A stretch of DNA of 64,000 bases from an uncultured Nitrospirales bacterium (GTDB lineage: Bacteria > Nitrospirota > Nitrospiria > Nitrospirales > NS-4). The stretch's first letter is position 1. The number at the start of each line of letters is the position of its first letter. Location: the NCBI GenBank assembly GCA_964472655.1, contig CAYYLQ010000011.1:11227-75226 (forward strand). Direction: 5' to 3'. Below, in pieces: positions 14,919 to 41,885 of this stretch. The position numbers and the translations under genes are program-made. Under the pieces are notes generated by a model that was given only the letters and a program-made list of their open reading frames with translations, was not told where the DNA came from and made no database searches.

Positions 14919-14919
14919 G

Positions 14920-21710: not shown

Positions 21711-21751
21711 CAGAAGCAAAAGGGCGCCAGTCTGAAAAGACTGGCGCCCTT
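21711..21751 (-). terminator. Intrinsic terminator between glnK and the downstream P-II gene
   Basis: Minus-strand RNA: a perfect 14-bp stem aagggcgccagucu / agacuggcgcccuu with a UUUC loop, followed by UUGCUUCUG. Confidence 0.8.
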
Positions 21752-21791: not shown

Positions 21792-21844
21792 CCCTCCCGA
21801 AAACGCCACGATGCGCGCTGCGGAAAGGTTCCTGTGCTTTTTCC

Positions 21845-22201
<357 letters not shown>

Positions 22202-23684: not shown

Positions 23685-23724
23685 AATAAAAAAAGGGCAC
23701 CAATCCCTACAGACTGGCGCCCTT
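23685..23724 (-). terminator. Intrinsic terminator in the glnA-amt spacer
   Basis: Minus-strand RNA: a 10-bp stem aagggcgcca / uggugcccuu (one G-U) with a 12-nt loop, followed by UUUUUUUAUU. It ends about 20 nt before the amt SD and start. Confidence 0.75.
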
Positions 23725-23799
23725 GCCAGGAATCCTTCGAACCAGGGTCTGCTTCGACCCCGTCAGCCTCCGGAAACACCGCATTGTGTTTCCGGAAGG
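23714..23799 (-). promoter_or_regulatory. ANTAR-substrate-like hexaloop hairpins (antiterminator) upstream of amt
   Basis: Minus-strand RNA: a 13-bp hairpin ccuuccggaaacac[AAUGCG]guguuuccggagg (23799-23767), then gggguc[GAAGCA]gacccu (23761-23744), then cuggc[AAGGGC]gccag (23729-23714). The last overlaps the 5' arm of the terminator. Confidence 0.5.
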
Positions 23800-25271: not shown

Positions 25272-25300
25272 AATCCCCTCCTTTAGGATTTAAGCCTGTA

Positions 25301-28002
25301 TCATTTCTGCTGGGCACTGGCCCGGCGCACTATCTGGCGCGTCGACTGCGCCTCCCCGAGAAATCCCTCAATCCTGGTCGTTATTTCTTCGCAGATCAGC
25401 TTGCACCGGCCGAGATCGGCGATCTTGACGCCGGTCCGGTCCGTGACATAGAAGACGTCGACGACCTGGTCTAGCTTGGTCGAAATCCTGGCCGCATGGA
25501 CAGACAGGCCAAGGTCGAAAATCGCATGCGTGATGACGTAGAGCAGGCCTTGCCGGTCATCGGCGAACACGTCGATAATCGTGTACCGGTCAGAGGTGTC
25601 GTTGTCCACCTGGACCACCGTCGGTTCGCGAAGGGGGACTCCCTGGCGCGCCCGGCCGAAACGGGTGGCCTCCTGCAAAAGATCTTCCACCGAGTAGCGC
25701 CTTTCCAGCACGCCAACGATGGCGCCGCTGATCTCTCTGAAGCGGCGGTCGCGGATGTCTTCGAGGCAATCCGGATCCGCCACGCGGAAGACGTCCACGA
25801 CCACCCCGTCAGTCAGGGTCACGATCTGGGCGTCCAGAATCTGCACCCCCTTGGCCGCCAGGACACCGGCGATTTTTGAAAAAATACCAGGCGTCAGACT
25901 ATCGTTGGTGTATACCGTGTACTCGGTCGCACCCAGCGTTTGATCGTATTGCGCGTCCACCAGTGCGGGCGCATTGGCAAGCTTGGCAAGCCACTCCAGA
26001 TGCGTAACGAGCCGTTCGACCGGCATGGCCGAGAGATAATGGTCCGGCCACGCGTTCAATTGCCGGGTGAGCCAGGCTGCGGGATAGCGCGGTTCCAGCC
26101 GGGCCAGCGCGGCCTGGCGGATCGTTTGGGCGCGCGCGCTGCCCTCGTATGCCGTTTCGGTTTCATCCCCTCCCGCGAGTTCCGCATGCGTCTTTAAAAA
26201 GAGATCGCCCAGCAGCGTGTCCTTCCAGGGCGTCATAACTCCCGGCCCGACTGCCGAGATATCGGCCGCAGTCAGGACGAACAGCATCTTCAGCGCTTCC
26301 GGTGTACCGACCTGACGGGCAAACCTCAGCACGACTTTCTCGTCTGAGGAATCACGGCGGAATGCGGTGTTGGCCATCAGCAGATGCTGACGGACGAGAA
26401 ACACCAGAAGTTGGGTTTCGTGTTCACTCAGGCCCAGGAGGTTGGCCACGTCCAGGGCGATCCGCTCTCCGATCAGACTGTGATCCTCCTCCTGCCCCTT
26501 GCCGACATCGTGAAGCAGCACGGCCAGGTGCAGGAGGTCTTTACGTCTGATTTCACGATAGACCTTGCCCACCAGACCCTTTCCAGAGCCAAGTTCCTCC
26601 GCCTGGCTGACGGCCAAAAGGCTGTGCTGGTCGACTGTGTACTTGTGGTAGGCATTGAACTGCATGAGGCCTCGGACCGTCCCGAACGCTGGGACGATCC
26701 TTTCCAACAGGCAGGCGCGATGCATTGCAGCCAGGGTCTCCGCGACGCGTCCAGGCCCGGACAGAATGGCAAGGAACCATCGCCTTGCTGTGTCGTTTCG
26801 AAATGCCCCATCCGGCACGGCAGCGATGCGGTCGGGAAGTTCCTGGACAACGTCGTCGGCCACGTTCAAGCCGTGCATTTGGGCCAGGTGAAAGAGCCGC
26901 AGGATTCGTCCGCTATCAGACAGCGCGTCGGCCCGAAGCTCAGGCGGCACCGTGATGTCATTCCGCGTCAGTGCGAAGTAGCGCTCGATTCGCCGTGCCG
27001 GGAGCCATGCGGCAAGACGTTGCCAGGCCGTACGCTGCATCGCCTGCGACACGAACCGCGCGGTGAGATCGCAAATCCGAGTCGAATGACGGTAGTACTG
27101 CTGCATGAACTGCTCGACCGCCAGGAGATGCGGCAGGTCCTTGAACCCACGCAGGCCGGCGATACGGATCTGTTCATCAAACGTCAGAATATCCTGAGCG
27201 CGAAGCGCATAGAAGTGGAGGTCGTTCCGTACCCGCCAGAGAAACTCCTGAGCTTCCCAGAGAGCTGTGGCGTCCCCGGCACTCAGCAAACCGCCCGCCG
27301 TGAGCTCCTCGAACGACCACGTGCCGTACCGGGCCATGGCAGTCCATTTGAGCAGGTGCAGGTCTCTCAGCCCTCCTCTTCCCTTTTTAAGGTTCGGCTC
27401 AAGAAGAAAATTAGTCGAGCCGTACCGGCTATATTCCTGCTGCCGTTCCTCAAGCTTTCTGCCAACATACTCCCGCACGCCCTTCCCGGAGACCGCGACA
27501 CGATAGTCCCGCGTGAATTCAGTGCAGAGATCCCGGTCCCCCGCCAGCCAACGGGCCTCCATTAAAGCCGTGCGCACGGTGAGATCCGACCGTCCCATCT
27601 CCAGGCAATCCGCGATCGTTCGCAGGCTGTGCCCGACCTGAAACCCGAGATCCCAGAGTGTGTGCAGGATCGCCGTGGACAACGCGCCGGCTTTCTGCTT
27701 CTGGCGAGGGGCATAGAGAAACATGAGGTCAATATCCGAGTACGGCGACAGCTCACGCCGTCCGTAGCCACCGAGGGCCACGAGGGCGACGCCGGACTGA
27801 TCGGGCGTCCCGTTTGTTCCAAGGCTTGATCGGTAGAGATCCAGCAGGATCCCATCCGCCAGGTCGGTCAGCGCGGTCACGATCTCCACGCCGGTCGCAC
27901 CGCGCATGTGCGCCGCCGCAATCGCCTGCCGGCGGGCATCAAGGGTTTCCCTGGTCCATTGACGGCCGGTCGCCCGGCTGAGCACCGATTCCATCATAAG
28001 CA

Positions 28003-28003
<1 letters not shown>
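25301..28003 (-). CDS. glnD: [Protein-PII] uridylyltransferase / uridylyl-removing enzyme
   Basis: 900 aa. Nucleotidyltransferase N-domain (GGYGRRELSPYSDIDL), HD domain (LLHDVGKG) and two C-terminal ACT-like repeats. The start overlaps the glnB stop (TAATG). Confidence 0.9.
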
Positions 28004-28437
<434 letters not shown>

Positions 28438-28474
28438 TCATAGCCCAACCCTCTCTTCCACACAACCATGCTTC

Positions 28475-28492
28475 GGCAGGCCCCGTGCCAGA
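28475..28492 (-). promoter_or_regulatory. Candidate sigma-54 (-24/-12) promoter for glnB-glnD-glnA
   Basis: Minus strand reads CTGGCACGGGGCCTGCC, to compare with the consensus YTGGCACGrNNNTTGCW. GG and GC have the correct spacing. It lies about 135 nt upstream of ATG 28341. rpoN is present in the window. Confidence 0.45.
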
Positions 28493-28521
28493 GAAAACCA
28501 GGACACGCTCTCTGGCACGGG
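28482..28521. repeat. 13-bp inverted repeat embedding the -24 element
   Basis: cccgtgccagaga (28482-28494), a 14-nt spacer, then tctctggcacggg (28509-28521). Confidence 0.7.
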
Positions 28522-28562
28522 TTGCGCCTGTCTATCTTGGATATCGCGCTGTCATACCGTTC

Positions 28563-29441
28563 TCAGAGGTTGATGTCCAATTGAACAGTCCATTTCCACT
28601 GGCCGTTGATGACGTGGTCGTTGAACCAAACCGGACCTGTCAGGAGGCTGATGTCCTTCGTAAAGAAGTGGTACATGCCGAATCCGCCCCCCCCGATGTA
28701 GTTCTTCCCGCTGGCGTAGTCAGCTGCGAACATCCACTTGTTGTACTCGTTGCCCGCCTTGTCCTTGACCGGCCAGAAGCCGTAGTCGTAGCCGACCATT
28801 ACGCCGGCATTCTGATGGGCGTCACTTGAAGAAGTTCCGCCTTGACCGGGAGCGCATGCGAACCCGCTCATGGGCGAGGCCCCCGGCTTACAACCATTTT
28901 TATTCATCAAGACCGATCCGGGATTCCCGTAATAGCCGCCGCCATGGATCCTCCCGAACGGTCCGAGCGTCTTCCCTACCAGGAAGTCCACGATATCCAT
29001 GTTTGACACTTGGGATTTCGTTCCCACATTGAAAATGCCCAGGTTGAAGGCCGGGAACCAGCTCCCGAAAAACGCGCCCTCAGGGGTTCCTATTTTTGCA
29101 TTGAACAACCCGCTGTGTGCCATGGACCGGAGTGCCGGGTGGGCAAAAACGCCCGGCGCGAGATAGTCAATGCCCATTTCCATGTTGATCTTTTCAAAGG
29201 GTAAGACACCCACAGTCAAGCCAATATCGGTAGGTAAAGCCATCGCCTGTCCATGGTCTATATCCCCTTGTGTCTGCGACAACCGAAAATAGTTGTCCAC
29301 TCCGATGTGCCAGACGTTAAAGCCCTGGATGTCAGACGTGGCCGGCGTCCAATAAGTTGTGGAAGGCGTGGCAAAAACAGTCCCTGTCAGGACGAGGGAC
29401 AAAAGCAATACGGGAATTGCGATGCGTCCAAGTTGTTTCAT
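28563..29441 (-). CDS. Putative outer-membrane beta-barrel protein / porin candidate, function unknown
   Basis: Signal peptide MKQLGRIAIPVLLLSLVLTGTVFA. Gly/aromatic-rich with alternating-hydrophobicity segments. C-terminal strand WKWTVQLDINL. SD AAGGAGG. No family recognised with confidence. Confidence 0.55.
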   Translation of the reverse strand: MKQLGRIAIPVLLLSLVLTGTVFATPSTTYWTPATSDIQGFNVWHIGVDNYFRLSQTQGDIDHGQAMALPTDIGLTVGVLPFEKINMEMGIDYLAPGVFAHPALRSMAHSGLFNAKIGTPEGAFFGSWFPAFNLGIFNVGTKSQVSNMDIVDFLVGKTLGPFGRIHGGGYYGNPGSVLMNKNGCKPGASPMSGFACAPGQGGTSSSDAHQNAGVMVGYDYGFWPVKDKAGNEYNKWMFAADYASGKNYIGGGGFGMYHFFTKDISLLTGPVWFNDHVINGQWKWTVQLDINL

Positions 29442-29540
29442 GGCAGTGTCGCCTCCTTTTTGAATTCAGCAGCCGTGACCGACTTCTTGTTACCGGCGAC
29501 ACCATCGTCCTCCCCGCACTCCATTGTGCGAGCAACACGC

Positions 29541-31283
29541 TCAATAACTGCGATAGCGATTCGTGATCGGCATGCGCCGATCCTTCCCCAGCGCCCGGTG
29601 CGTGATCTTGACGCCCGGCGGCGACTGGCGGCGCTTGTATTCGCTGCCGTCCACCAATGCCATGACTTTTTCGATCGTCTGCCGGCCAAATCCGGCGGCG
29701 AGTAGATCGGTCTTCCCTTGATCCTCTTCGACATACCCGCGAATAATCGGATCCAGCACCTCATACGGCGGCAGGGAATCTTGATCCTTCTGGTTAGGAC
29801 GCAACTCGGCCGTCGGCGGACGGGTAAAGACCCGCTTGGGAATCACGGGGCCGGCCTCACGCCCGTTCCGCCACCGGGCGAGTTCGTAGACCAATGTCTT
29901 GGGTACGTCCTTGATAGCCGCGAATCCGCCGGCCATATCGCCGTACAGCGTGGCGTACCCGACGCTCATTTCGCTCTTGTTCCCTGTCGTCAGGACGAGC
30001 CACCCGTATTTGTTGGACAATGCCATCAAGAGATTCCCGCGAATTCTCGCTTGCAGGTTTTCCTCGGTCACGTCCGGATTCCGCCCTTTGAAAACGGACG
30101 CCAACAGCGTGGTGTAGGCATGAAAAACCGGTGTAATGGGCAAACTATGGAACCGGATCCCAAGATGGCGGGCCAAGGCGAGAGCATCCTCACGGCTCTC
30201 TATGGAAGAGTAAGGAGACGGCATGAACACGCCGACGACATTGCGCGCGCCCAATGCATCCACGGCAAGGACGGCGGTCAACGCCGAGTCTATACCTCCG
30301 CTCAGCCCCAACACCGCCTTCTGGAACCCATTTTTTCTGGCATAATCGCTGATACCCAGCACGAGCGCCTTATAGACTTCCTCTAAAGGAGACGGCACGG
30401 CAGGAATGCCTCCATGCACCAGACTGCGGCGCACAGGACGGTACCGCGAGGAGACGACGACCCTGTCGACGACAACCCCCTTGCGTTCGAGAAGCCGCCG
30501 ATCGCGCCTCCGGCGCGTGTCATGCAAGCGGGCGCGCGATACGGCGTCGACATCCACATCGGCGACCACCAGGTCCTCCTCAAACGCCCGGCCACGCGCA
30601 ACGATGCCGCCGCTTTGATCCACCACCAGGCTGTTTCCGTCGAACACCAGCTCGTCTTGTCCTCCAACCAGGTTGGCGTACACCACCACCACCAGATTGT
30701 CCATGGCGCGGGTGGCCAGCATCTCCTCTCGAACGCGCAGTTTGCCCCTATGGTAGGGCGACGCGCTGATGTTGATGATCACCTCCGCGTCCCCGACCAG
30801 CGATTGTACGCGTGTCGGGCCTTCCGGGAACCAGATGTCTTCACAAATGTTAAAGCCGATGGTGACGCCGTTCAGAACGACCGTAGTCGATCGGGTGCCG
30901 GCCTGGAAGTAGCGATTCTCATCGAAAACCCCGTAGTTCGGAAGATAGGTCTTGCGCTGCGTGGCCACGACCCGTCCGCCGTAAATGAATGCCGCGGCGT
31001 TATACACGTCGTCGTGGCGGTCGACGAAGCCCACTACGGCGGCAATCCCCTTCTTCACCTTTCGGGCGGTCCGTTCCAAAACGGCGAGGTTGTCGGCAAT
31101 GAATTGGGAGCGTAACAGGAGGTCTTCCGGAGGATATCCCGTCAATGTCAACTCGGGAAACACGACCAGGTCGGCGCCTGCCTCGCGGGCCACGGAAACC
31201 CCCCGAAGCACGCGCGCCGCATTTCCGTCAAGATCACCGACGGTCGTGTTGATCTGGGCCAGAGCGATCCGCAATAACCTCAT
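29541..31283 (-). CDS. nadE: Glutamine-dependent NAD+ synthetase (CN-hydrolase + NAD synthetase domains)
   Basis: 580 aa. N-terminal nitrilase-like domain (FPELTLTGYPPEDL, ICEDIW) and a C-terminal ATP-PPase domain (GLSGGIDSA). Confidence 0.95.
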   Translation of the reverse strand: MRLLRIALAQINTTVGDLDGNAARVLRGVSVAREAGADLVVFPELTLTGYPPEDLLLRSQFIADNLAVLERTARKVKKGIAAVVGFVDRHDDVYNAAAFIYGGRVVATQRKTYLPNYGVFDENRYFQAGTRSTTVVLNGVTIGFNICEDIWFPEGPTRVQSLVGDAEVIINISASPYHRGKLRVREEMLATRAMDNLVVVVYANLVGGQDELVFDGNSLVVDQSGGIVARGRAFEEDLVVADVDVDAVSRARLHDTRRRRDRRLLERKGVVVDRVVVSSRYRPVRRSLVHGGIPAVPSPLEEVYKALVLGISDYARKNGFQKAVLGLSGGIDSALTAVLAVDALGARNVVGVFMPSPYSSIESREDALALARHLGIRFHSLPITPVFHAYTTLLASVFKGRNPDVTEENLQARIRGNLLMALSNKYGWLVLTTGNKSEMSVGYATLYGDMAGGFAAIKDVPKTLVYELARWRNGREAGPVIPKRVFTRPPTAELRPNQKDQDSLPPYEVLDPIIRGYVEEDQGKTDLLAAGFGRQTIEKVMALVDGSEYKRRQSPPGVKITHRALGKDRRMPITNRYRSY

Positions 31284-31298: not shown

Positions 31299-31352
31299 TC
31301 AACAAAACGTCCTCTCGCCGCCTATCCCAAAGAGGAAACAGCAAGAGGACGT
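31299..31352 (-). terminator. Terminator/attenuator-like hairpin just upstream of nadE
   Basis: Minus-strand RNA: a 9-bp stem acguccucu / agaggacgu around a 28-nt loop, followed by UUUGUUG, about 20 nt before the nadE ATG. Confidence 0.35.
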
Positions 31353-31372
31353 CATCGTCCACAAACAGAAGC

Positions 31373-31434
31373 GGCGTCTTTCCCCTTAAAGGCTAGGAGC
31401 CACCTTTTCTTGTGCTCCTAAAGGGAAAGACGCC
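31373..31434 (-). repeat. Long imperfect inverted repeat (about 21 bp in two helices) in the cusA-nadE spacer
   Basis: ggcgtctttcccctt pairs with aagggaaagacgcc (15 bp, one G-U). An inner helix taggagc/gctccta surrounds a 13-nt loop. One arm carries a 7-nt bulge. Confidence 0.6.
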
Positions 31435-31473
31435 GTCGTCAGCTAGCACAACAACGTGCTATGGTGTGCGTTA

Positions 31474-31496
31474 TAGCAAAAGCCCCTTGGGGCTGT
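31474..31496 (-). terminator. Small intrinsic terminator candidate downstream of the RND pump gene
   Basis: Minus-strand RNA: AGCCC-CAAG-GGGCU followed by UUUGCUAUAA, about 140 nt after the stop at 31633. Confidence 0.4.
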
Positions 31497-31632
31497 CAAT
31501 AGATTTCTGGTCCCTGGGCATCAGCCAATTCTGCACCCTGGTATCAATCTGGATTCTAATATCGGATCAAGAGCTTGCAGCATTTTTGATCGCACGCCGA
31601 GAAACCTGCCCTGGCGCCTTTGCCTACGACTA

Positions 31633-34600
31633 TTACCTCTGGAACCGCTTGATTGCTCTCCAACGCCACATTGCGTAGAGCACAGGGATCACTAGCAGCG
31701 TGAGGATGGTCGCGCTGACCATGCCGCCGATCATCGGCGCCGCGATGCGCTTCATCACGTCCGCGCCGGTGCCTGTGGTCCACATGATCGGCAGCAGTCC
31801 GCCCATGATCGCCGCCACGGTCATGATCACGGGCCGCACTCGTTGCACGGCGCCTTCCAGGATGGCCTCGCGCAGGTCTTGCGGCGTGGTCATCCGGCCT
31901 TCGCGCACGCGCCGTTCATACGCCTCGTCCAGGTACACCAACATGACGACGCCGGTTTCCGCCGCCACGCCGGCGAGCGCAATGATGCCTACCCAGACCG
32001 CCACGCTCAGGTTGTAGCCCAGTAGGTATAGCAGCCAAACGGCCCCGATCACGGCAAACGGAACCGACAGGAGCACGATCAGCGACTTCGCGAGGGACCG
32101 AAAATTCAGATACAGGAGCAACACGATCAGACCCAGCGTCACAGGCACCACGAGCTTCATCCGTTCTTCAGCCCGGACGAGATGCTCGTACTGTCCCGTC
32201 CATTTGAGCGTGTACCCTGCCGGAAGCGTGACTCGTTCCCCGACGGCCCGCCGGGCGTCTTCCACATAGCTCCGCAGGTCCCGCCCGATAACCGAAACCG
32301 ACACCAAGCCGGCCAGCGCTCCGCTTTCGTCGGAGATGGAGGACGGCCCTTTCGTCCGCACCACGTCGGCCACCTGTTTGAGCGGGACTTGCGCCCCCGA
32401 AGGGGTTGGGATCAGCACACGCTGGAACCGCGTCGGGTCGTCTCGCAGCTCGCGCTTGTAGCGGACACTCACGGTGTACCGCTCGCGTCCTTCGACGGTC
32501 GTCGTCACCGGTTCGCCGCCGATGGCCGAGGTGATGACGGCCTGTACGTCGCCGACCGTCAGGCCATAGCGGGCCGCTTCACGCCGGTTTACGATCACGT
32601 CCAGGTAGTACCCCTCGTTCAACCGCTCCGCAAACGCGCTGCGCGTGCCGGACACGGAGGCCAGCACCTGCTCGATCTGTTTCCCGATGTCTTCGATGGT
32701 CTTCAGGTCGGGTCCCAGCACCTTGACGCCGACCGGACTTCGCACGCCGGTCGTGATCATCTCGGTGCGGGTCTGGATCGGCATCCACCAGATATTGGGA
32801 AAGCCTGGAATCCTCAGCTTCGCGTCCATCTCGTCGAGCAGCCGGTCCCAGGTCATGCCGAGTCGCCACTGCGTCTCCGGCTTGAGCGTCACCGTGATTT
32901 CCGCCATGCCGGTGAAGGCGGGATCCGTGGCGGTCTGCGCCTTGCCCATCTTGCCGAACACCCGCTCGACTTCCGGGAACTCTTTGAGCAAGCGGTCCTG
33001 CACCTGCAGGACCTTGACGGACTCCGGGATCGAAAGGCCCGGGACCGTGGTCGGCATGTACAGGATCGTGCCTTCATCCAGCGGCGGCATGAACTCCGCC
33101 CCTAATCGGGTGAACACCGGCACGGTCGCCGCGAGGGCGCCCAGCGCCGCGAGCACCGTGAGCCACCGGACGCGCAGCACACCGGACAAGATGGGTCGGT
33201 AGAGCGTGATCAACAGCCAATTCAACGGATTCCGCGTTTCCGCCCTGATGCGGCCGCGGATCAGGCCGATCATCAGCACCGGGGCCAGCGTGACCGAGAG
33301 CGCCGTGGCAAACACCATGGAAAAGGTCTTGGTGTAGGCCAAGGGCGCGAACAAGCGCCCCTCCTGAGCTTCCAAAGCAAAGATCGGCAGGAACGACACG
33401 GCAATTATCAATAACGAGAAGAATAAGGGGCGGCCGACCCCCTTCGCGGCGGCGATGATGGTTTCAATCCGGTCGGCTCCGGGGTTTTGCTCCAGCCGCT
33501 TGTGGGCGTTTTCAACCATGACGATGGCGGCGTCCACCATGGCCCCGATGGCGATGGCGATCCCGCCGAGGGACATGATGTTCGAGGTCACCTTCAGATA
33601 GGCCATTGGGATGAACGAGAGCAGGACCGCAACCGGCAACACCAAAATCGCCACGAGGGCGCTCCGGAAGTGAAAAAGGAACACCACCGTCACGAGGCTG
33701 ACGATGAGACTCTCCTCCACCAGTTTCTCGCGCAGCACCGCGATGGCCCGCAGAATGAGATCCGAACGGTCGTAGGTGGGGACGATGCGAACACCGGGCG
33801 GCAATGAGGTCTTGACCTCCTCCAGTTTGGCCTTCACCCGGTTGATCACATTGAGGGCGTTCTCCCCGAATCGCATGACCACGATGCCCCCGACGGTCTG
33901 CCCCTTCCCATCCAACTCGGCGATGCCCCTCCGCTGGTCCGGCCCCAGTTGCACGCGCCCGATGTCACGAATCAGGATCGGCGTGCCCCGTCGATCCACC
34001 CCGACTGGGATCGTCTCGATGTCCTCCACGGAGCGCAGGTAGCCACGGCCCCTGACGACATACTCCGTGCCGGCCATCTCCAACACGCGGGCCCCAACTT
34101 CCGCATTGCTGTTGCGGACAGCCTCAATCACGGTCTTGATCGGCATGCGATACGCGGCCAGCGTATTCGGGTCCACCTCGATCTGATACTGCTTGACGAA
34201 GCCGCCCACAGACGCGACCTCGGCCACGCCGGGCACGCTCTCCAGTTCGTAGCGCAGATACCAGTCCTGGAGGCTCCGGAGCTGCGCCAGATCATGCCGG
34301 CCGGACTCGTCCACCAGGGCATACTGATAGACCCATCCCACGCCCGTGGCATCCGGGCCCAACGTCGGCGTCACGCCCTCCGGGAGCTTCCCGGCCAGCT
34401 TCTGCATGTATTCCAGGACGCGGCTGCGCGCCCAGTAGAGGTCGGTCTGGTCCTGGAAGATCACATACACGTAGGAGAACCCGTATTCCGACGCACCCCG
34501 GACCAATTTGACCTGCGGCGCGGCCAGCATTGAGGTCACGATTGGATAGGTGATCTGATCTTCGACCAAGGTCGGGCTGCGGCCTGGCCACTCGGTGTAG

Positions 34601-34746
34601 ATGATCACCTGGACATCCGAGAGGTCCGGGATCGCATCCAGCGGGACTGCAAACACCGCCCACACTCCGCTGGCAGCCAGCAACAACACAAAGAGGATCA
34701 CTAGAAATGGGTTGCGGGCGCTCGTTTCGATGAGTCGTGTGATCAT
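31633..34746 (-). CDS. Heavy-metal efflux RND pump (HME-RND, CusA/CzcA family)
   Basis: 1037 aa with a 12-TM RND architecture. N-terminus MITRLIETSARNPFLVILFVLLLAASG typical of CusA/CzcA. Operon with an adaptor and a TolC-like gene. Confidence 0.9.
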   Translation of the reverse strand: MITRLIETSARNPFLVILFVLLLAASGVWAVFAVPLDAIPDLSDVQVIIYTEWPGRSPTLVEDQITYPIVTSMLAAPQVKLVRGASEYGFSYVYVIFQDQTDLYWARSRVLEYMQKLAGKLPEGVTPTLGPDATGVGWVYQYALVDESGRHDLAQLRSLQDWYLRYELESVPGVAEVASVGGFVKQYQIEVDPNTLAAYRMPIKTVIEAVRNSNAEVGARVLEMAGTEYVVRGRGYLRSVEDIETIPVGVDRRGTPILIRDIGRVQLGPDQRRGIAELDGKGQTVGGIVVMRFGENALNVINRVKAKLEEVKTSLPPGVRIVPTYDRSDLILRAIAVLREKLVEESLIVSLVTVVFLFHFRSALVAILVLPVAVLLSFIPMAYLKVTSNIMSLGGIAIAIGAMVDAAIVMVENAHKRLEQNPGADRIETIIAAAKGVGRPLFFSLLIIAVSFLPIFALEAQEGRLFAPLAYTKTFSMVFATALSVTLAPVLMIGLIRGRIRAETRNPLNWLLITLYRPILSGVLRVRWLTVLAALGALAATVPVFTRLGAEFMPPLDEGTILYMPTTVPGLSIPESVKVLQVQDRLLKEFPEVERVFGKMGKAQTATDPAFTGMAEITVTLKPETQWRLGMTWDRLLDEMDAKLRIPGFPNIWWMPIQTRTEMITTGVRSPVGVKVLGPDLKTIEDIGKQIEQVLASVSGTRSAFAERLNEGYYLDVIVNRREAARYGLTVGDVQAVITSAIGGEPVTTTVEGRERYTVSVRYKRELRDDPTRFQRVLIPTPSGAQVPLKQVADVVRTKGPSSISDESGALAGLVSVSVIGRDLRSYVEDARRAVGERVTLPAGYTLKWTGQYEHLVRAEERMKLVVPVTLGLIVLLLYLNFRSLAKSLIVLLSVPFAVIGAVWLLYLLGYNLSVAVWVGIIALAGVAAETGVVMLVYLDEAYERRVREGRMTTPQDLREAILEGAVQRVRPVIMTVAAIMGGLLPIMWTTGTGADVMKRIAAPMIGGMVSATILTLLVIPVLYAMWRWRAIKRFQR

Positions 34747-34749
34747 GAC

Positions 34750-36420
34750 TTACATGCCCATGCCGCCGACCTGCAGCCGAAACTTCTCGCTGATGGACGG
34801 CTTTCCAGGAATCGTCACGTTCGCGGTCACGTCCCATGTGCCGCCCATCCCGAGCATCGCCTTGCCTTCATAGACGCCGTCCTTGGTATGCGCCGCCTGC
34901 GCTTTGGAGTCGATCATTCCAGGCATCGGCATGGTGTAAACGAACAGCACCTGCGCATTCGTCACTGGCTTGCCAGCCTGGTCCGTCACCTTCAGGCGCA
35001 GCACATTCTCGCCCGCTTTCGGCACCTCCGACGCCGTACTCAGGGTTAACACATAACCGGACACCTTCAGCGTCTCAGAGACCAACTTGGCCGGAGTGGA
35101 CATGCCGGGCATATCTTTCATGCCTTCCATACCCTGCATTCCCTCCATGCCTTCCATCTTTTTCTCGTAGGCGCCGCGCATCTGCCAGTCAGCCATCCCC
35201 AGTTGGCCCATCATGGCCTGCATGCTTCCGGCGGAGGCGAGCTTGCTCTCGGCATCCAGCAGGAAATTGGCCGAGGTCACGACCCGGTCTCCCTCCTTGA
35301 CGCCTTCCAGGACTTCGATTCGGTCCTGGCCTTGACGACCCAACTTGACTGGCGTTGGCATGTAGATCCCTTGCCCGAGATCACGGAACACCAGTTGCCG
35401 AAGACCAGTATCCAGCACGGCCTCCTTCGGCACGGCGAGCCGCTTCTGCGTATCGATCTGCAACGTGACCGTGCCGTACATGCCCGGCTTCAGTTTCAGC
35501 CCTGGATTGGGGAATTCCACCCGCACGCGGACTGTCCGTGCCTGTTCGTTCAAGTAGGGATAGATGTAGATCACCTTTCCCCGGAAGGTTTCCCCCGGGT
35601 AGGCTTCGAAAGTGACCGCGGCTGGTTGGTTGAGCTTCACCGAGGGCATCTCATATTCGTAGACGTCGGCAGCGATCCAGACGGTCGAGAGATCAGCCAA
35701 CTCATAGAGCGTCGTATTGGGTTCAACATATTTGCCTGGGAGTGCTTCACGCTTGAGCACAATCCCTCTGGACGGCGCATACACAGTGAGGACCGGCTCC
35801 GCTTTCACACGACGCTCGAGGGCCGCGATCTGTTCATCGGTCAAATTCCAGAGTTTGAGCCGTTCCCGGGCGCTGGCCACCAGCACAGCCGCACCTTCTT
35901 TGGCTTCGGGTACCGGACTGCCGCTGACCTGAGCCTGCACTTTCAACGCCAACAAGTATTCATCCTGTGTCGCCAATAGATCAGGAGAATAGAGGGTAAA
36001 GAGCGGTTCGCCCTTGCGGACCGGCCTCCCGACTGAATCGACAAACACCTCTTGGATCCAGCCAAGGACTCGCAAGTTCACATGCGTGAGTTTCCGCTCG
36101 TCGTAGTCCACAATCCCGACCGCCCGGATCTCTTGCTGCAAAGAGGCGTACCCGACCGGCGCGCTGCGGACTCCGATCAACTGGCGGGTGCCTGCCGGAA
36201 TGGCGATCGCCCCCGGCGGCGCCGCTGGCATGCCTTTCATTCCCTGCATGCCTTTCATGTCCATTTCTTTCCTGGGCATGTCCTTCATAGGCGTCTGCTT
36301 TATGCCGGACATGTCGCCCATCATCATTTGGGCCGCCCAGAAGCCACTGACAACTCCGACAAGCACACCGGCCATAGCGACACTGATCAGCGCGATTCTC
36401 CATCTGATTACTGTATTCAT
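34750..36420 (-). CDS. RND periplasmic adaptor (CusB/CzcB-like) with Met-rich segments and an extra C-terminal beta-sandwich-like domain
   Basis: ATG 36420 is preceded by AAGGAGGAA. HlyD/MFP core present. Met-rich stretches MMMGDMSGIKQTPMKDMPRKEMDMKGMQGMKGMP and MEGMEGMQGMEGMKDMPGM. C-terminal about 100 aa look YtkA/FixH-like and end GGMGM. Confidence 0.85.
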   Translation of the reverse strand: MNTVIRWRIALISVAMAGVLVGVVSGFWAAQMMMGDMSGIKQTPMKDMPRKEMDMKGMQGMKGMPAAPPGAIAIPAGTRQLIGVRSAPVGYASLQQEIRAVGIVDYDERKLTHVNLRVLGWIQEVFVDSVGRPVRKGEPLFTLYSPDLLATQDEYLLALKVQAQVSGSPVPEAKEGAAVLVASARERLKLWNLTDEQIAALERRVKAEPVLTVYAPSRGIVLKREALPGKYVEPNTTLYELADLSTVWIAADVYEYEMPSVKLNQPAAVTFEAYPGETFRGKVIYIYPYLNEQARTVRVRVEFPNPGLKLKPGMYGTVTLQIDTQKRLAVPKEAVLDTGLRQLVFRDLGQGIYMPTPVKLGRQGQDRIEVLEGVKEGDRVVTSANFLLDAESKLASAGSMQAMMGQLGMADWQMRGAYEKKMEGMEGMQGMEGMKDMPGMSTPAKLVSETLKVSGYVLTLSTASEVPKAGENVLRLKVTDQAGKPVTNAQVLFVYTMPMPGMIDSKAQAAHTKDGVYEGKAMLGMGGTWDVTANVTIPGKPSISEKFRLQVGGMGM

Positions 36421-36434
36421 CGGTTGTTCCTCCT

Positions 36435-37715
36435 TCACGGACGTCCACTCAGATCCACACCGACCGCTCGCTCGAGCTCGGCCATCCGCTGTTCGGATTC
36501 GGTCAACGCCCGGTAATAGGCGAGTTGAAAGTCTTTGATCACCCGCTCGGCGTCCAGCAAGGTCAGAAACTCCGCCTTGCTCGTCTGGTAGCCGATCCGA
36601 GCGGACTCGAGTGTCTGCTGCGCCTGCGGCAGTACGGTGGTTTTGTAGAGCATGACCATCTTCTCTGCCGCCTCGATCTTGGCCAGAAGATCCTTCACTT
36701 CGAAGAGGATCTGGTTCTGCAAGGCCTGAAAGGCCGCTCTGGCCGAATCCGCATTGGACGCCGCTTCCCGGATGCCCGCCTCATATTTGGGCTTGGTCCA
36801 GAAGGAAAACGGGAGGCTCATGGTGACCATCCCCCCAAAACCGTCCCGTGCGCCAAAATTTTGATACCGGTCGAAGCTCACGCTGAAATCCGGGTACAAC
36901 TGTTTGTGCGCCAGCGCCGTGGCCGTCTGGCTCTTGGCAATGTCGAGGTCCAAGACTCGCAACTCGGGACGGTTCAGCATCGCCCGTTGGTACAGCTCGT
37001 CGAGCGTCAGCCGCGTCTTGTTCGCGTCGGGTCCGGCCGGCTCGACGGGCTCGCCGAGCGGAGTCTCGGGGGCGTGCCCCAAGAAAAGGTTGAGCTTGGC
37101 CTTGGCGGTCTCGCGCTGCTGCTCCAACACCGGCAGCTCGTTGGACAGCTTCGACAGCTCCACCGTGGATTTAAGCACGTCTACCTGCGTCCCCTTCCCG
37201 GCCCGAAACCGCGCATTGGTGATTTCAAAGAATTCTTTCAAGAGATCGATCTGACGGTGGTGCACCTCGATCGCCTTGTGCGCGAGAAAAACCTCGTAGT
37301 AGGCGTTCTTGGCCTGCGCGGCCACTTCACGCTCCTTGGCGTTGAGCAGCGCAGCCGCCATCTCGGCCTCTTTGACCGCCAGGCTTTCCTTGAGGCCGCG
37401 CTTGCCAGGATAGGGGAAGCGCTGCGACAGGCCGAAGATCGTGTTGGCCGACGCGTCGGGGTAGAGCCGGTTGGGATAGTTGAACAGCTCGACCTTGAAC
37501 TCGGGATCGTCCAAAGACGCCACCTGTGGCGCACGCTCCTGGGCGGCTTTCCACCGATGCCGGGCCGCCTGGATCTCGGGATTCCGTTCGAGGGCCTCGG
37601 CAACTACAGCCTCAAGTTGGAGTGGTGGTTCGCCGACCGCCCCAGCAGAGGGAATGGGCCCGAATCCAATCGCTGAAAACACAAGTGCAATGAGCACACA
37701 ATGACGCACACACAT
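36435..37715 (-). CDS. TolC-family outer-membrane efflux protein (CusC/CzcC-like)
   Basis: ATG 37715 has GGAGG 6 nt upstream (the tracked TTG 37733 is less likely). Signal peptide present. Two OEP repeats. Confidence 0.85.
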   Translation of the reverse strand: MCVRHCVLIALVFSAIGFGPIPSAGAVGEPPLQLEAVVAEALERNPEIQAARHRWKAAQERAPQVASLDDPEFKVELFNYPNRLYPDASANTIFGLSQRFPYPGKRGLKESLAVKEAEMAAALLNAKEREVAAQAKNAYYEVFLAHKAIEVHHRQIDLLKEFFEITNARFRAGKGTQVDVLKSTVELSKLSNELPVLEQQRETAKAKLNLFLGHAPETPLGEPVEPAGPDANKTRLTLDELYQRAMLNRPELRVLDLDIAKSQTATALAHKQLYPDFSVSFDRYQNFGARDGFGGMVTMSLPFSFWTKPKYEAGIREAASNADSARAAFQALQNQILFEVKDLLAKIEAAEKMVMLYKTTVLPQAQQTLESARIGYQTSKAEFLTLLDAERVIKDFQLAYYRALTESEQRMAELERAVGVDLSGRP

Positions 37716-37787
37716 GGCCGACCTCCGAAGCAAAGAAGTCCACGAGGGCCCCTGCGGGACCCGGATAGAGTCAGCTTGTGCGGCGGA

Positions 37788-38141
37788 TCAGATGCGGAGG
37801 ATCGAAATCAGAGAGAGAGGGTCGCGGTCAAGAAAGGGAGGATTCCATGAGAAAGAATGCAGACGAGACAGAACCGACTCGGAAATCGGGATCGAAACCT
37901 GCTCGTCCACAACCACCTGCACGTGGCCATCAGGGAGCGGTTGGGCTGCAGAAAACGCCTGGACGACAAGAGCCTTAAAGGCATCGCAGGCGTCTCGGAC
38001 GGGCTGCTCCTTCGGCATCGTGCAGTCGCTTTTCTTCGCCACGTCCACGCCACCATACAACGGAAGCAAACAAGCATAGGCATTGAACGAGAGAGATAGA
38101 TAGAAGAGGGCTAAGGAGAGTGCGAGAAGCGAACGTCTCAT
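37788..38141 (-). CDS. Small exported Cys-containing protein heading the metal-efflux operon (hypothetical)
   Basis: ATG 38141 gives the signal MRRSLLALSLALFYLSLSFNAYA followed by C. Three Cys lie in the first 30 mature residues. No SD. Alternative starts 38171 and 38177. No family recognised. Confidence 0.45.
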   Translation of the reverse strand: MRRSLLALSLALFYLSLSFNAYACLLPLYGGVDVAKKSDCTMPKEQPVRDACDAFKALVVQAFSAAQPLPDGHVQVVVDEQVSIPISESVLSRLHSFSWNPPFLDRDPLSLISILRI

Positions 38142-38236
38142 ATTCGAAATCGTATCATGAACGAGCGTCATGCGCAAGTTATGAAGAAGAGTACGGTGGA
38201 CCTGCCACGTAAATCGCTGTTACGCCTTCATCGGCG

Positions 38237-39526
38237 TCATTTTCCGGCCACCCGTTTGTCGAGTTCCCCGGCGAGCAAGATAGCCTCGGCGATCTCTCGC
38301 ATTGAGCGCCGCGTGTCCATGCTCTGGCGCTGCATGATCCGAAACGCTTCCTCCTCCACAATGTGCTTGCTTCGCATGAGCTGGCCCTTGGCGCGCTCGA
38401 CCAGCTTGCGCACTTCAAGCGCTTCCTGCATTTCGAATGACTTCTCCATCAGGCTTGTATTTTCGATCGTGATCGCCGCTTGGTTCGCCACCGCCTGCAA
38501 CACTTTGATTTCCTCGGCGGTAAACAGATGCTCGTGCGCCGTGTAGCTGTTGATGACCCCAATCGGCTTGTCTTTGACCAGCATGGGAACCGACAACAGC
38601 GAGCAGAGCCCTTCCTTACGCGCCAAATCCGGGTACATATAGCCGGGGTCTTTGGTGACATCCAGAACCGCGATGGGTCGTCGATCCTTGAGCACGCGGC
38701 CGCTGATGCTCTGCCCGACTTTCAGGTTAGGTTTTCGACGATAGCTCTCGCTAAGGCTTTGGGTGGCCACAATGCGAAGCTCATCGCGCTCTGAGTCCAA
38801 CAGCATGATCGAGCAGATCGCCGACCCCATCATCTCCGCCGTCATGGTCACCAGGAGATGTAAAACTTCTTCCAGCAGACGCCCAGACGTGATTGTCGCG
38901 CTGACCCGGGAAAGCGTTTCGACCTGACGGGCTTTTTGAGTGATTTCCGCATGAAGCCTCGCGGTTTCGATCGCGCCCCCGACCTGACGCCCCATCGTGG
39001 TCATAAGCGCCACTTCATCGGGAAGGTGCCGGTGGAGTTTTTTATGCTGGACGTTGATAACTCCGATCACCTCCCGTTTGGCGATGATGGGAACGGAGAG
39101 AAAGGCCTGATGGCGATCTTCCGGGAGGTTGTGGAACACCTTGAACCGGGGATCGTCGCTGGCATTGCTGGCGATTGCAACGTGTCTCCCCTGTTGTGCA
39201 ACCCATCCGGTGATCCCTTCACCCAGGCCCAAGCGGATGCGGCCGATCAATTTGGGATGGGGATTTTTGGACGCCCTGAGGACGAGCTCGTCGCGGCGGG
39301 GACTGAGGAGATAGATGAGGCACGAGTCCGCCTTGGTAACTTCCGTTGCGACCTCGACGATATCATGCAGAACGGCATCAAGATCGAGGTTTCCGCTGAC
39401 CGTCTCGCTGACTCGATGCAGAATCTCGGCTTCCCGTGTTTTGTCGCGGAGGGTCCGCTGCAAAGCGGCGACTGACACCCGATTGTTCTGCTTCATCCCG
39501 GCAACGCTCCCCTCGCGCAGGGGCAC
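38237..39526 (-). CDS. GAF-GAF-ANTAR RNA-binding antitermination regulator
   Basis: Two GAF-like modules are followed by a C-terminal ANTAR helix bundle, LEVRKLVERAKGQLMRSKHIVEEEAFRIMQRQSMDTRRSMREIAEAIL. GTG 39526 or ATG 39496 may be the start. Only 18 nt downstream of aroB. Confidence 0.85.
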   Translation of the reverse strand: MPLREGSVAGMKQNNRVSVAALQRTLRDKTREAEILHRVSETVSGNLDLDAVLHDIVEVATEVTKADSCLIYLLSPRRDELVLRASKNPHPKLIGRIRLGLGEGITGWVAQQGRHVAIASNASDDPRFKVFHNLPEDRHQAFLSVPIIAKREVIGVINVQHKKLHRHLPDEVALMTTMGRQVGGAIETARLHAEITQKARQVETLSRVSATITSGRLLEEVLHLLVTMTAEMMGSAICSIMLLDSERDELRIVATQSLSESYRRKPNLKVGQSISGRVLKDRRPIAVLDVTKDPGYMYPDLARKEGLCSLLSVPMLVKDKPIGVINSYTAHEHLFTAEEIKVLQAVANQAAITIENTSLMEKSFEMQEALEVRKLVERAKGQLMRSKHIVEEEAFRIMQRQSMDTRRSMREIAEAILLAGELDKRVAGK

Positions 39527-39544: not shown

Positions 39545-40675
39545 TCAGGTTCCAGACTGCCGCGTTCCGAGGATTCGCCGGATGTGGGATTCTTCAACGG
39601 GCTGGACGGACACGTGGCCAATGCGCTCAGGCAAAACAAAGTGGATGCGTTGATCCTGGACTTTTTTATCCTGCCTCATCGCACGAAGAAGCGCAGGTGT
39701 CGAAATCACGGGCAGCCGGTCAGGGAGGCCGGCCTTGTGCACAAGACCGCGGATGCGCCCAGTGATATGCATTTCCGCCAGGCCAAGATGCGCGGCCAAT
39801 CGTGCGGCAATGACCATGCCTATGGCAACGGCCTCCCCATGCTTGTAACGCCGATACTTCGTGACCGTTTCCAAGGCATGGCCCAACGTATGTCCGAAAT
39901 TCAGGATGCGCCGCCGGTCACCTTCTCGTTCATCTTCGGACACAATCGCCGCCTTAATGGCTGAGGACGTCAGGATGAGCCGGTGGACAACCGCCGGATC
40001 AAGGTCGAGAATCCGGTTCATATTGTCCTCCAGAAAGGCAAAAAACCCGGCGTCCGCGATCACCCCGTATTTGATGACTTCCGCCAACCCGGCACGGTAC
40101 TCGCGGGCAGAGAGCGTCCGAAGAACCCCAGGATCGCTCAATACCAATTGGGGCTGATAGAACGAGCCGATAAGGTTCTTGCCCAGCGGATGGTTGACGC
40201 CTGTCTTTCCGCCGATACTGGAATCGACCTGCGCGACGAGGGTCGTCGGCACCTGCACGAAAGGAATGCCGCGCAAATAAACGGAAGCCGCAAAACCGGC
40301 GAGGTCGCCGATGACCCCGCCCCCCAATGCAAGGAGCACGCTTTTTCGTTCACACCGGCGGCGGACAAGCTCATCGAGGATGGCGGACACCCACTTTAGC
40401 GACTTGGTGCGTTCGCCGTCCGGCAGACACAAAATGTTCGTCCGGAATCCTGCGCCTTTGAGGCCGCGCAATAATCGGGCGCCGTAGAGCCGCTTAACCA
40501 CAGCATTCGTGACGACTACGGCATCAGCGCCTGTTGTGAGGGGGCGCAGCAGTTCTCCGGCCCCGTCAATCAGTCCTTCCTGGATGAGGACATCATAGCC
40601 CCGATCGGCGAGGTCCACGCGTACGCGATCAGGTTGCGGCAAGGAACGGCGGTTCTCTAGAGAATCGGATTTCAT
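39545..40675 (-). CDS. aroB: 3-dehydroquinate synthase
   Basis: Start re-assigned to ATG 40675 (MKSDSLENRR..). Motifs GGGVIGDLAGFAA, GGKTGVNHPLGKN, NFGHTLGHA. Confidence 0.9.
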   Translation of the reverse strand: MKSDSLENRRSLPQPDRVRVDLADRGYDVLIQEGLIDGAGELLRPLTTGADAVVVTNAVVKRLYGARLLRGLKGAGFRTNILCLPDGERTKSLKWVSAILDELVRRRCERKSVLLALGGGVIGDLAGFAASVYLRGIPFVQVPTTLVAQVDSSIGGKTGVNHPLGKNLIGSFYQPQLVLSDPGVLRTLSAREYRAGLAEVIKYGVIADAGFFAFLEDNMNRILDLDPAVVHRLILTSSAIKAAIVSEDEREGDRRRILNFGHTLGHALETVTKYRRYKHGEAVAIGMVIAARLAAHLGLAEMHITGRIRGLVHKAGLPDRLPVISTPALLRAMRQDKKVQDQRIHFVLPERIGHVSVQPVEESHIRRILGTRQSGT

Positions 40676-40724
40676 CGGATACAGCAAGACGGATACGGCA
40701 TGAACGAAGTTCGTGAATGCTGCG

Positions 40725-41885
40725 TCAGAACTGTTTGACGTACGCCTGGTAGGAGTCGTAATTGCGTCGCATCTCGTCCAGCGTATCGCCACCGAATTTT
40801 TCGATTAGCGCGGCGGCGATTTCGTACGCCACCACGGCCTCTCCCACCACGCCTGCCGCCGGCACCGTACAAATATCGGATCGTTCGATGGTGGCTTCAA
40901 GCGGCTTTTTCGTCTGTATATCCACGCTTTTCTTGGGGGAATAGAGCGTGGCAATGGGCTTCATCGCGGTTCTCAATACAATCGGCTGGCCGTTGGTGAT
41001 GCCTCCCTCCAAACCACCAGCGTTGTTGCTGCCTCGTATGAATCCTGTCTTCTGCTCATAAAAAATTTCGTCATGCACTTCAGAGCCGAACTTTCGGGCC
41101 GCATCAAACCCCATGCCCACTTCGACCCCCTTCATCGCCTGGATGCTCATCAGCGCCATGGCCAACCTGCCGGTCAGACGGCGGTCCCATTGCGCATAAC
41201 TGCCGAGCCCAAGCGGAGGATTGCTTACGATCACTTCAAAGATGCCTCCCAGCGTATCGCCCTTATGCTTGGCCTCACGGATTCGCTCCACCATCAGTGC
41301 CGAACTCTTTGCTTCGGGACAGCGTACTTCAGATTCTTCCGCCTGTTGGAAGGCCTGTTCCGTCGTCAACCCTTCCAAGGAAGCCTGTACTCCACCGATC
41401 TCAACGGTATAGCTGTAGACGCGCATCCCGAATTCAGCCAGGAGCCTCTTCGCAACGCCTCCCACCGCCACACGGATGGCCGTCTCGCGAGCGCTGGCCT
41501 TCTCCAGGACGTTGCGGATGTCGCGGTGGTTATATTTGATCGCGCCGACCAGATCGGCATGGCCCGGGCGCGGGCAGGTGACGACTTTTTCCGTGACCGG
41601 GGGACCCGGTTCGGGCGCCATGACCGCTTTCCAGTTTTCCCAGTCCCTATTCGCAACGTGCAACGTGATCGGCGTGCCGAGAGTCTTCCCCTTGCGGACG
41701 CCGGACAAAAATTCAACGTGATCCTGCTCGATCCGCATGCGGCCACCACGGCCATAGCCTTTTTGCCGTCTGGAGAGGTCTCGATTGATGTCGTCAGCGG
41801 TCAGAGGCAGGCCGGAGGGGACCCCTTCCAGGACGGCGATGAGACCTTTCCCGTGGGATTCCCCCCCGTTCAGATACCGCAACAT
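40725..41885 (-). CDS. aroC: Chorismate synthase
   Basis: 386 aa. [15 protein letters not shown].., GRSSARETA-like [22 protein letters not shown]. Confidence 0.95.

Follow-up and report, generated by a model that had tools for sequence, protein, structure and literature searches.

Which genes are controlled by an ANTAR regulator that appears to stand alone in its genome? This question was raised by a gene encoding two GAF domains and an ANTAR domain, found in a 64,000-nucleotide (nt) stretch of DNA from an uncultured Nitrospirales bacterium (assembly GCA_964472655.1, contig CAYYLQ010000011.1; hereafter, the window). A sequence-only reading of the window had described the gene as an orphan and had proposed its product as the trans-acting factor for two nitrogen-related leaders, upstream of an ammonium transporter gene (amt) and of a P-II gene. 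It is likely, on the evidence presented below, that the regulator is a one-component, ligand-gated ANTAR antiterminator of the nitrogen-assimilation operons of Nitrospirales, within which we infer RNA binding by this protein rather than by another ANTAR protein, the direction of regulation, and the ligand.

The order Nitrospirales includes the main nitrite oxidisers and the comammox bacteria, and is central to global nitrification and wastewater treatment. GAF-ANTAR is among the commonest ANTAR architectures, and no member has a known ligand or target.

Genomic context of the regulator

The neighbourhood of the regulator was compared across 83 related loci annotated by tblastn; 72 species loci offered 1.5 kb or more of sequence downstream of the regulator. 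The usual gene order was aroC-aroB-ANTAR-nadE-(orf292-amt-P-II)-glnD-(glnA), and nadE was located within 1.2 kb downstream of the regulator in 52 of the 72 species loci. The complete genome of Nitrospira sp. Kam-Ns4a exhibited the order rpoN-hpf-rapZ-pilMNOPQ-aroC-aroB-[GAF-GAF-ANTAR]-nadE-amt-P-II-glnD-glnA. Exactly one ANTAR open reading frame (ORF) was present in each of 84 sequences (neighbourhoods of about 20 kb), and no second ANTAR gene was detected in any of them.

In the window, the neighbouring genes are all on the minus strand, with pilMNOPQ, aroC and aroB upstream of the regulator, and an ORF of 129 amino acids (aa) and cusC, cusB and cusA downstream. Beyond the cus genes, and on the same strand, are a glutamine-dependent nadE, a 292-aa ORF (orf292), P-II, glnD, glnA, amt, and two more P-II genes. 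None of the 83 related loci carried cus genes next to the regulator; in relatives whose protein is 96 % or 94 % identical, the regulator and nadE are separated by a spacer of about 215 nt, without cus genes. From this comparison, the 6.5-kb orf129-cusCBA segment is a lineage-specific insertion, which has come to lie between the regulator and the nadE leader; beyond it, at about 31300-31499, the ancestral spacer survives together with its promoter. To describe the gene as an orphan is misleading in evolutionary terms: most relatives carry it directly upstream of nadE-glnD-glnA, and it looks orphaned here because metal-efflux genes were recently inserted.

Domain architecture and RNA-contact residues

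A Pfam search detected two GAF domains (GAF_2, E 1.6e-40; GAF, E 1.7e-38) and a C-terminal ANTAR domain (PF03861; 68.2 bits versus a cut-off of 27.3, E 5e-19), in agreement with the architecture that had been read from the sequence; the C-terminal peptide quoted in that reading was also present. No Pfam match was obtained for Response_reg, the receiver with a phospho-acceptor Asp that typifies regulators such as GnfR and EutV, and no histidine kinase was found among the neighbouring genes, both as had been claimed. The NIT nitrate/nitrite domain of NasR gave no match either, and only the ANTAR part of the regulator aligned to the NasR structure (4akk). With two GAF domains, no receiver, and no kinase, the regulator would therefore be a one-component system. 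The architecture is shared within the family: the best 120 of 7949 matches were all GAF-GAF-ANTAR proteins, with 68-96 % identity, and 259 species-level relatives were found in GTDB genomes.

The ORF listed in the window encodes 429 aa from a GTG at 39526. Because orthologues have 419-421 aa, with starts called about 48 nt past aroB, translation probably starts at the ATG at position 39496 (M11), which would yield a protein of 419 aa.

In the AlphaFold2 (AF2) model (pLDDT, the predicted local distance difference test, 81.2), the regulator was arranged as a GAF domain, a long helix, a second GAF domain, a second long helix, and a three-helix bundle. The inter-domain helices (residues 169-213 and 337-387) run into the ANTAR bundle, whose helices comprise residues 337-387, 391-401, and 406-428; a coiled-coil helix leading into a three-helix bundle, as expected of an ANTAR protein, was thus present. 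The ANTAR region also gave sequence matches to 1s8n, 6wsh, and 4akk, and the tandem-GAF fold of the model resembled the dimeric tandem GAF domains of PDE2, PDE5, PDE6, and CyaB2 (Foldseek).

In EutV, the RNA is contacted by R142, K143, K147, K149, E160, Y164, and M172 (PMC8934654). These residues align to R373, K374, R378, K380, E391, F395, and M403 of the regulator, with five identical and two conservative positions; the R and F variants also occur at these contacts in Rv1626. The contact residues were invariant in 33 orthologues, with the exception of R378, which fell outside the invariant columns. With its contact residues intact, the ANTAR domain is predicted to be competent for RNA binding.

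ANTAR-type leaders in the window

The sequence-only reading had named the amt and P-II leaders as convincing substrates of the regulator. We found the same 16-mer, CTGGCAAGGGCGCCAG, in the amt leader and in that of the last P-II gene (23714-23729 and 21741-21756, minus strand), and the observed match count was reached in none of 100 shuffles. This 16-mer forms a 5-bp stem with the hexaloop AAGGGC, and its 3' half is also the 5' arm of a 14-bp terminator, which is followed by a U-run; such sharing of sequence between the P2 hairpin and a terminator with a U-run is expected of an ANTAR target RNA, as is the position of the elements, in the 5' leader, on the sense strand, and conserved in relatives. 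The minimum-energy folds of the amt and P-II leaders consisted of the hexaloop hairpins and the terminator (z = -7.9 and -4.65). In the P-II leader, the first nucleotide of the P1 and P2 hexaloops (ATCGCC and AAGGGC) is A and the fourth is G (A1/G4). The A1/G4 pattern is also present in P2 (AAGGGC) and H0 (AATGCG) of the amt leader. In the amt leaders of relatives the stems vary, with G4 retained in all three loops and A1 in most. A sigma-54 promoter was considered as an explanation of the TGGCA... motif and rejected, as no -24/-12 match was obtained in the window.

Two statements had been made about other possible targets. The first, that no ANTAR leader lies beside the regulator, proved correct: neither the aroB gap nor the region before the cus genes contained dual A1/G4 hexaloops with a terminator. 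The 5-bp hairpin at 38222-38237 (minus strand), which overlaps the stop codon of the regulator, has the hexaloop GATGAA and no U-run. The second, that the amt and P-II leaders, 15-17 kb away, are the only convincing substrates, was correct as to the existence of these leaders; however, it did not connect the regulator with a nearer candidate, the ancestrally adjacent nadE leader (31300-31499), at 6.7 kb.

In the clade of the window, two attenuators in tandem make up the nadE leader (31434-31362 and 31353-31300; z = -8.5), and each hexaloop hairpin overlaps its own terminator-like hairpin. In other species, the spacer between the regulator and nadE contains a sigma-70-type promoter, P1 (typically GAGAC-AACGAA-GTCTC), P2 (GGAC-AA[A/G/T]G[G/A]C-GTCC), and a terminator; the 5' arm of the latter, ACGTCCTC..., overlaps P2, and the terminator is followed by a run of 7-9 U and then by the nadE start codon. 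A1 and G4 are found in the nadE leader loops of most other species (AACGAA, AAnGnC). In three members of the window clade, P2 has A1 (AATGAC or AATGCC). A clade of Nitrospirales metagenome-assembled genomes (loci L048, L051, L054, L060, L062, L064, L065, L068, L072, and L074, about 11300-11360) exhibited P2 and a terminator before nadE and no recognisable P1; this may be a single-hexaloop variant.

When 22 nadE leaders were aligned, P1 and P2 were 92 % paired, versus 46-62 % when the partners were slid. Four pairs of P1 showed compensatory changes, and the P2 stem was invariant.

Leaders across Nitrospirales

A hexaloop hairpin with an overlapping terminator was found on the same strand within 3 kb downstream of the regulator in 58 of the 72 species loci, and within 600 nt in 48 of them (controls, 4/72 and 5/72). 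A descriptor of such elements (an A..G.. hexaloop hairpin overlapped by a terminator and U-run) was used to scan 1.45 Mb and returned 189 sites, about five times the rate in shuffled sequence. Loops of the type AA.G.[C/T] were present in 92 of these sites, 54 of which precede nadE; some of the remaining ones precede amt, P-II, NMT1_2/NrtA-like binding protein, DUF6733, porin-like, or lipoprotein genes. The nadE-type and amt/P-II-type leaders have a common loop consensus, AAnGnC, and differ in their stems, as would be expected if the protein recognises the hexaloop. Indeed, in the EutV-RNA structure, the contacts of the ANTAR domain are essentially limited to the hexaloop, and A1 of the loop is held to be important for EutV (PMC8934654).

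In loci of Nitrospira lineages in which nadE is not downstream (L033, L038, L047, L071, and L129), a dual hexaloop leader follows the regulator, before a gene for a secreted protein of about 450 aa. This protein, which was matched by no Pfam family and has the C-terminus ...STWYNF, is probably a porin of the outer membrane. Moreover, ANTAR-type leaders were observed downstream of glnA, before a gene for an ATP-binding cassette (ABC) substrate-binding protein of the NMT1_2 (NrtA/CynA-like) type with a twin-arginine translocation (TAT) signal, in L013 (20551), L016 (20570), and L040 (20489-20647); in L040, two ANTAR-type elements are arranged in tandem before the NMT1_2 gene.

The motif GGACAANGNCGTCCTC was also searched in metagenome contigs, as a reciprocal test of low statistical power. 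Among the at least 120 matches listed, 110 lacked a terminator, lay mostly in coding sequence, and were attributed to chance. The 10 listed matches with a terminator included two ANTAR-leader-nadE loci, one porin-type leader of Nitrospira, and two nas-type leaders of other bacteria. The latter two (L156, 2090-2260, and L194, 2540-2720, on the motif strand) exhibited P2 (GGAC-AAAGGC-GTCC), P1 (CCTTC-AACGTG-GAGGG), and a terminator, and from their sequence look like nas-type ANTAR leaders; the one in L194 lies before a NirB-like ORF, behind a sigma-54-like promoter (TGGCAC-N5-CTGCA).

GAF domains and candidate ligand

The first GAF domain was most similar to the GAF domains of PtsP (NCBIfam, E 1e-39; 3ci6, E 1e-19; 3trc, E 1e-16), and in the AF2 model it superimposed on the PtsP GAF domain of 3ci6 with a template modelling (TM) score of 0.89 and 1.9 Å (Foldseek). 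The PtsP/EI-Ntr model NF008283 scored 136 bits versus a cut-off of 583, over profile positions 5-169 of 748 only (the GAF region). The NifA model TIGR01817 scored 102 bits versus a cut-off of 529 (E 3e-29), over profile positions 3-227 only. With scores so far short of the family cut-offs, the regulator is, as judged from sequence, a relative of the PtsP and NifA sensor domains and a member of neither family.

EI-Ntr binds glutamine through its GAF domain (PMC4848567). By analogy with the GAF domains of PtsP and NifA, we tentatively suggest that the regulator senses glutamine and/or 2-oxoglutarate, a guess to which we would give somewhat less than an even chance. No ligand-bound structure of a PtsP-type GAF domain was found for a comparison of the pockets.

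Alternatively, the regulator would control the leaders as proposed and its GAF domains would sense nitrite or nitrate (in the manner of NreA), a cyclic nucleotide, redox state, or haem, one of the two perhaps serving as a dimerisation scaffold only. The model of the nitrate sensor NreA matched the regulator weakly (E 1.3e-5), the DevS-type haem GAF domains gave marginal sequence matches, and the best fold matches of the tandem module were the PDE and CyaB2 GAF domains, which bind cyclic nucleotide monophosphates. In addition, the candidate regulon of relatives includes an NrtA-like binding protein of the nitrate/nitrite/cyanate type, and nitrite is the livelihood of these organisms. We nevertheless regard this alternative as somewhat unlikely, given that the first GAF domain is closest in sequence to those of PtsP, which bind glutamine. 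Conservation of the two GAF domains is high throughout the order, and neither looks degenerate; degenerate, non-ligand-binding GAF domains were among the outcomes that the earlier reading had named as refuting its proposal.

Proposed mechanism and its alternatives

In the mechanism that we propose, the tandem GAF module, which its long linking helices probably hold together as a constitutive dimer, would bind a nitrogen-status metabolite. In the active state, the three-helix bundles of the ANTAR domains would bind hexaloop hairpins (AAnGnC, with A1 and G4) in the nascent leader RNA. P2 would be stabilised, the overlapping intrinsic terminator could then not form, and RNA polymerase would read through. 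Without the protein, the leaders would fold as terminators; the default state would be OFF, because the leaders alone fold into hexaloop hairpins and a terminator. The ancestral, cis-adjacent target would be the leader of nadE-(orf292-amt-P-II)-glnD-glnA. In the window, the amt leader and the leader of the second P-II gene would be further targets, to which a component of an NrtA-like transporter and outer-membrane proteins would be added in relatives. The proposal that the regulator is the trans-acting factor for the nitrogen leaders appears to hold, in view of its physical linkage, in most Nitrospirales, with the nitrogen cluster and an ANTAR-type leader, and of its intact contact residues.

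Several observations weigh against this proposal. In 14 of the 72 species, N. moscoviensis among them, the 3 kb downstream of the regulator contained no leader of this kind. The nadE loops of the window clade (GACGGC and GATGAC) start with G, so that G4 is present and A1 is absent, and the proximal P1 loop of the amt leader (GAAGCA) also lacks A1. Covariation was modest and carried mainly by P1 and by two stem classes, the support being modest because the P2 stem is invariant. When 24 leaders from other species were used to build a covariance model, the best E-values of the window leaders were 0.44-0.46, which is not significant; the invariant GGAC/GTCC stem and variable linkers dominate this model, and we do not read the result as a negative. 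The ligand was assigned by domain similarity, at scores far below the family cut-offs, and a weak match to NreA exists. Finally, a second ANTAR protein (e.g., a GnfR- or NasT-like protein with a receiver (REC) and an ANTAR domain) may act on some or all of the leaders, as the search for ANTAR genes covered the neighbourhoods of the loci. Two other matches of the covariance model in the window were dismissed, one (7588-7630) because it lies inside a plus-strand coding region, and the other (29479-29516) because it has no terminator.

The last of these points leads to the explanation that such a REC-ANTAR regulator, encoded elsewhere in the genome, serves the leaders wholly or partly, and that the GAF-GAF-ANTAR protein acts on the nadE leader or on unrelated RNAs only. 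Several ANTAR proteins per genome are common. The P2 of the window amt and P-II leaders, CTGGCAAGGGCGCC, is nearly the same as the GnfR site CAGGCAANGGCGCC, and its stem differs from that of the nadE P2 (GGAC/GTCC), which could mean two regulators with two specificities. However, both classes of leaders have the same loop consensus, and ANTAR contacts are essentially restricted to the loop; moreover, in relatives the regulator and CTGGC-type leaders share one cluster, and the neighbourhoods that were searched had no second ANTAR ORF. We consider this explanation quite improbable.

It is most improbable that the adjacency is coincidental and that the leaders are protein-independent attenuators or riboswitches, or are under another class of factor: Rfam 15 (gathering and E-value thresholds) contained no relevant family for the leaders, and the covariation and covariance-model results are as described above, but the leaders show the ANTAR design, with A1/G4 hexaloops and with P2 and terminator structures that exclude each other, they match sequences that an ANTAR protein was shown to bind in Geobacter, their position beside the only local ANTAR gene is kept throughout an order, and no large, conserved aptamer-like structure is present.

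Antitermination by the regulator thus remains the preferred explanation, and the system is tractable, with one protein, three short leader RNAs, and a few candidate metabolites; with it, the gating of ANTAR domains by GAF domains and the sensing of nitrogen status in nitrite oxidisers can be addressed. A broader scenario, which we hold to be doubtful, is that a single GAF-GAF-ANTAR protein reading glutamine/2-oxoglutarate directly runs much of the control of nitrogen assimilation in Nitrospirales after transcription initiation (nadE, glnD, glnA, amt, P-II, a nitrate/nitrite-type transporter, and porins). If true, the regulator would be a functional equivalent, acting on RNA, of NtrBC/NifA signalling, and ligand and regulon would be defined for a GAF-ANTAR protein for the first time.

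Features of the window

The features of the locus are compiled in Table 1. The aroB ORF as listed (GTG 40792, 415 aa) overlaps aroC by 68 nt. Because aroB of relatives encodes 376-383 aa, its true start is probably further downstream. Within the insertion, the cusB product has Met-rich repeats and a C-terminal YtkA domain, and the 129-aa ORF has no known function. Directly past the cusA stop codon, a P2-like sequence, TAGGCAAAGGCGCCAG, was observed without a terminator (31611-31626, minus strand); this sequence could be the remnant of a leader of the amt/P-II type at the boundary of the insertion, or could match by chance.

The spacer between orf292 and P-II (28372-28562, minus strand; 190 nt) lacks the amt gene that relatives carry at this place. 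It contains a 10-bp hairpin, GTGCCAGAGA...TCTCTGGCAC, and a degenerate GCTGGTAAGGGCGAGCCAC. No convincing ANTAR element was found in this spacer or in the orf292-to-amt spacers of relatives. A purine cluster (purB-, purQ-, purL-, and purF-like genes) with a metallophosphoesterase gene (9653-16619, minus strand) is unrelated to the regulator.

Table 1. Position of the regulator, the leaders, and the associated genes in the window
Feature	Position	Strand	Evidence
aroB, upstream of the regulator	39545-40792	-	
GAF-GAF-ANTAR regulator gene, 429-aa ORF from GTG 39526	38237-39526	-	ORF listing, Pfam
GAF domain 1, residues 48-186, PtsP/EI-Ntr-like	38969-39385	-	Pfam, NCBIfam PtsP model, PDB matches 3e0y/3ci6/3trc, Foldseek
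GAF domain 2, residues 218-355, NifA/PDE-like	38462-38875	-	Pfam, NCBIfam, PDB sequence matches, Foldseek
ANTAR RNA-binding domain, residues 366-417	38276-38431	-	Pfam PF03861
Lineage-specific insertion: 129-aa ORF, cusC, cusB, cusA	31633-38177	-	Pfam, comparison with relatives
Sigma-70-type promoter of the nadE operon, TTGACA-N18-TATAAC, conserved	31470-31499	-	
nadE leader, hairpin 1, GAC-GACGGC-GTC, G-initial loop in this clade	31429-31440	-	
nadE leader, terminator-like hairpin 1 with U-rich tail, overlapping hairpin 1	31362-31434	-	
nadE leader, P2, GGAC-GATGAC-GTCC (orthologue in other species, GGAC-AAnGnC-GTCC)	31347-31360	-	
nadE leader, terminator 2, overlapping P2 (3' half)	31300-31353	-	
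Ancestrally adjacent operon: nadE 29541-31283, orf292 28563-29441, P-II 28003-28371, glnD 25301-28003, glnA 23844-25271	23844-31283	-	
amt leader, H0, 13-bp stem, loop AATGCG	23767-23799	-	
amt leader, P1, GGGTC-GAAGCA-GACCC	23745-23760	-	
amt leader, P2, CTGGC-AAGGGC-GCCAG, A1/G4 hexaloop	23714-23729	-	
amt leader, intrinsic terminator, 14 bp and U7, overlapping P2	23686-23724	-	
Ammonium transporter gene, probable ATG 23661	22246-23661	-	
Two P-II genes, 21845-22183 and 21317-21655, the second with its own leader	21317-22183	-	
P-II leader, H0 (GCGC-ATCGTG-GCGT) and P1 (AGGATC-ATCGCC-GATCCT), both A1/G4 loops	21774-21816	-	
P-II leader, P2, CTGGC-AAGGGC-GCCAG	21741-21756	-	
P-II leader, terminator, 14 bp, overlapping P2	21712-21751	-	

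Comparison with known systems

No published description of this regulator or of these leaders in Nitrospirales was found; the literature search turned up neither a link between ANTAR and Nitrospira nor a GAF-ANTAR protein that had been characterised, and Nitrospira is absent from the supplementary tables of Ramesh 2012. To our knowledge, the characterised ANTAR regulators of nitrogen genes all use a receiver, a pseudo-receiver, or a NIT sensor. The RNA switch has been described before, as has the link between ANTAR proteins and nitrogen genes: one study noted, in general terms, ANTAR motifs upstream of genes for P-II and ammonium transporters, and stated that no PAS- or GAF-ANTAR protein had been characterised (PMC3369931), and gene islands of P-II and nadE are known, Nitrospirae included (PMC7196632). 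What is new is a one-component ANTAR protein with GAF sensors and an assignable regulon in Nitrospirales, tied together by order-wide synteny.

Among the characterised systems, GnfK/GnfR of Geobacter sulfurreducens (Ueki & Lovley 2010, PMC2995071) shares with the regulator the ANTAR output and antitermination at leader terminators of nitrogen genes, glnK and amtB among them. The REC-ANTAR protein GnfR antiterminates at CAGGCAANGGCGCC before glnK, amtB, and nif genes (PMC2995071), and this site is almost identical to CTGGCAAGGGCGCC of the window. However, GnfR is phosphorylated by a kinase via its receiver, whereas the window protein has two GAF domains and neither receiver nor kinase; the organisms that carry the GAF-GAF-ANTAR family are nitrite oxidisers and not diazotrophs, and their regulon is headed by nadE-glnD.

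NasR of Klebsiella oxytoca (NIT-ANTAR, 4akk) is a one-component, ligand-gated ANTAR antiterminator of a nitrogen-assimilation operon, and by analogy appears to be the best mechanistic template for the regulator. It is a constitutive dimer whose autoinhibition is released on ligand binding (PMC7496416). It differs in its helical NIT sensor of nitrate/nitrite, in place of tandem GAF domains, and in its target, the nasF leader. EutV/EutW of Enterococcus faecalis (6wsh/6ww6) resembles the window system in its RNA-contact residues, its dual A1/G4 hexaloops, and a P2 overlapped by the terminator; unlike the regulator, EutV has a receiver domain and dimerises when phosphorylated, and its regulon is that of ethanolamine utilisation.

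The N-terminal GAF domains of PtsP (EI-Ntr) and NifA, which are nitrogen-status sensors (glutamine/2-oxoglutarate), are the closest to GAF domains 1 and 2 of the regulator in sequence and structure, but their outputs are a phosphoenolpyruvate (PEP) phosphotransferase or an AAA+ sigma-54 activator, not an ANTAR domain. Finally, the actinobacterial GAF-ANTAR and PAS-GAF-ANTAR proteins (Pfam architectures) also have GAF sensors fused to ANTAR; they have no assigned ligand or target, and the known mycobacterial ANTAR targets act on translation. Compared with these proteins, the Nitrospirales family is distinguished by two GAF domains of the PtsP/NifA type and by a cis-adjacent terminator leader.

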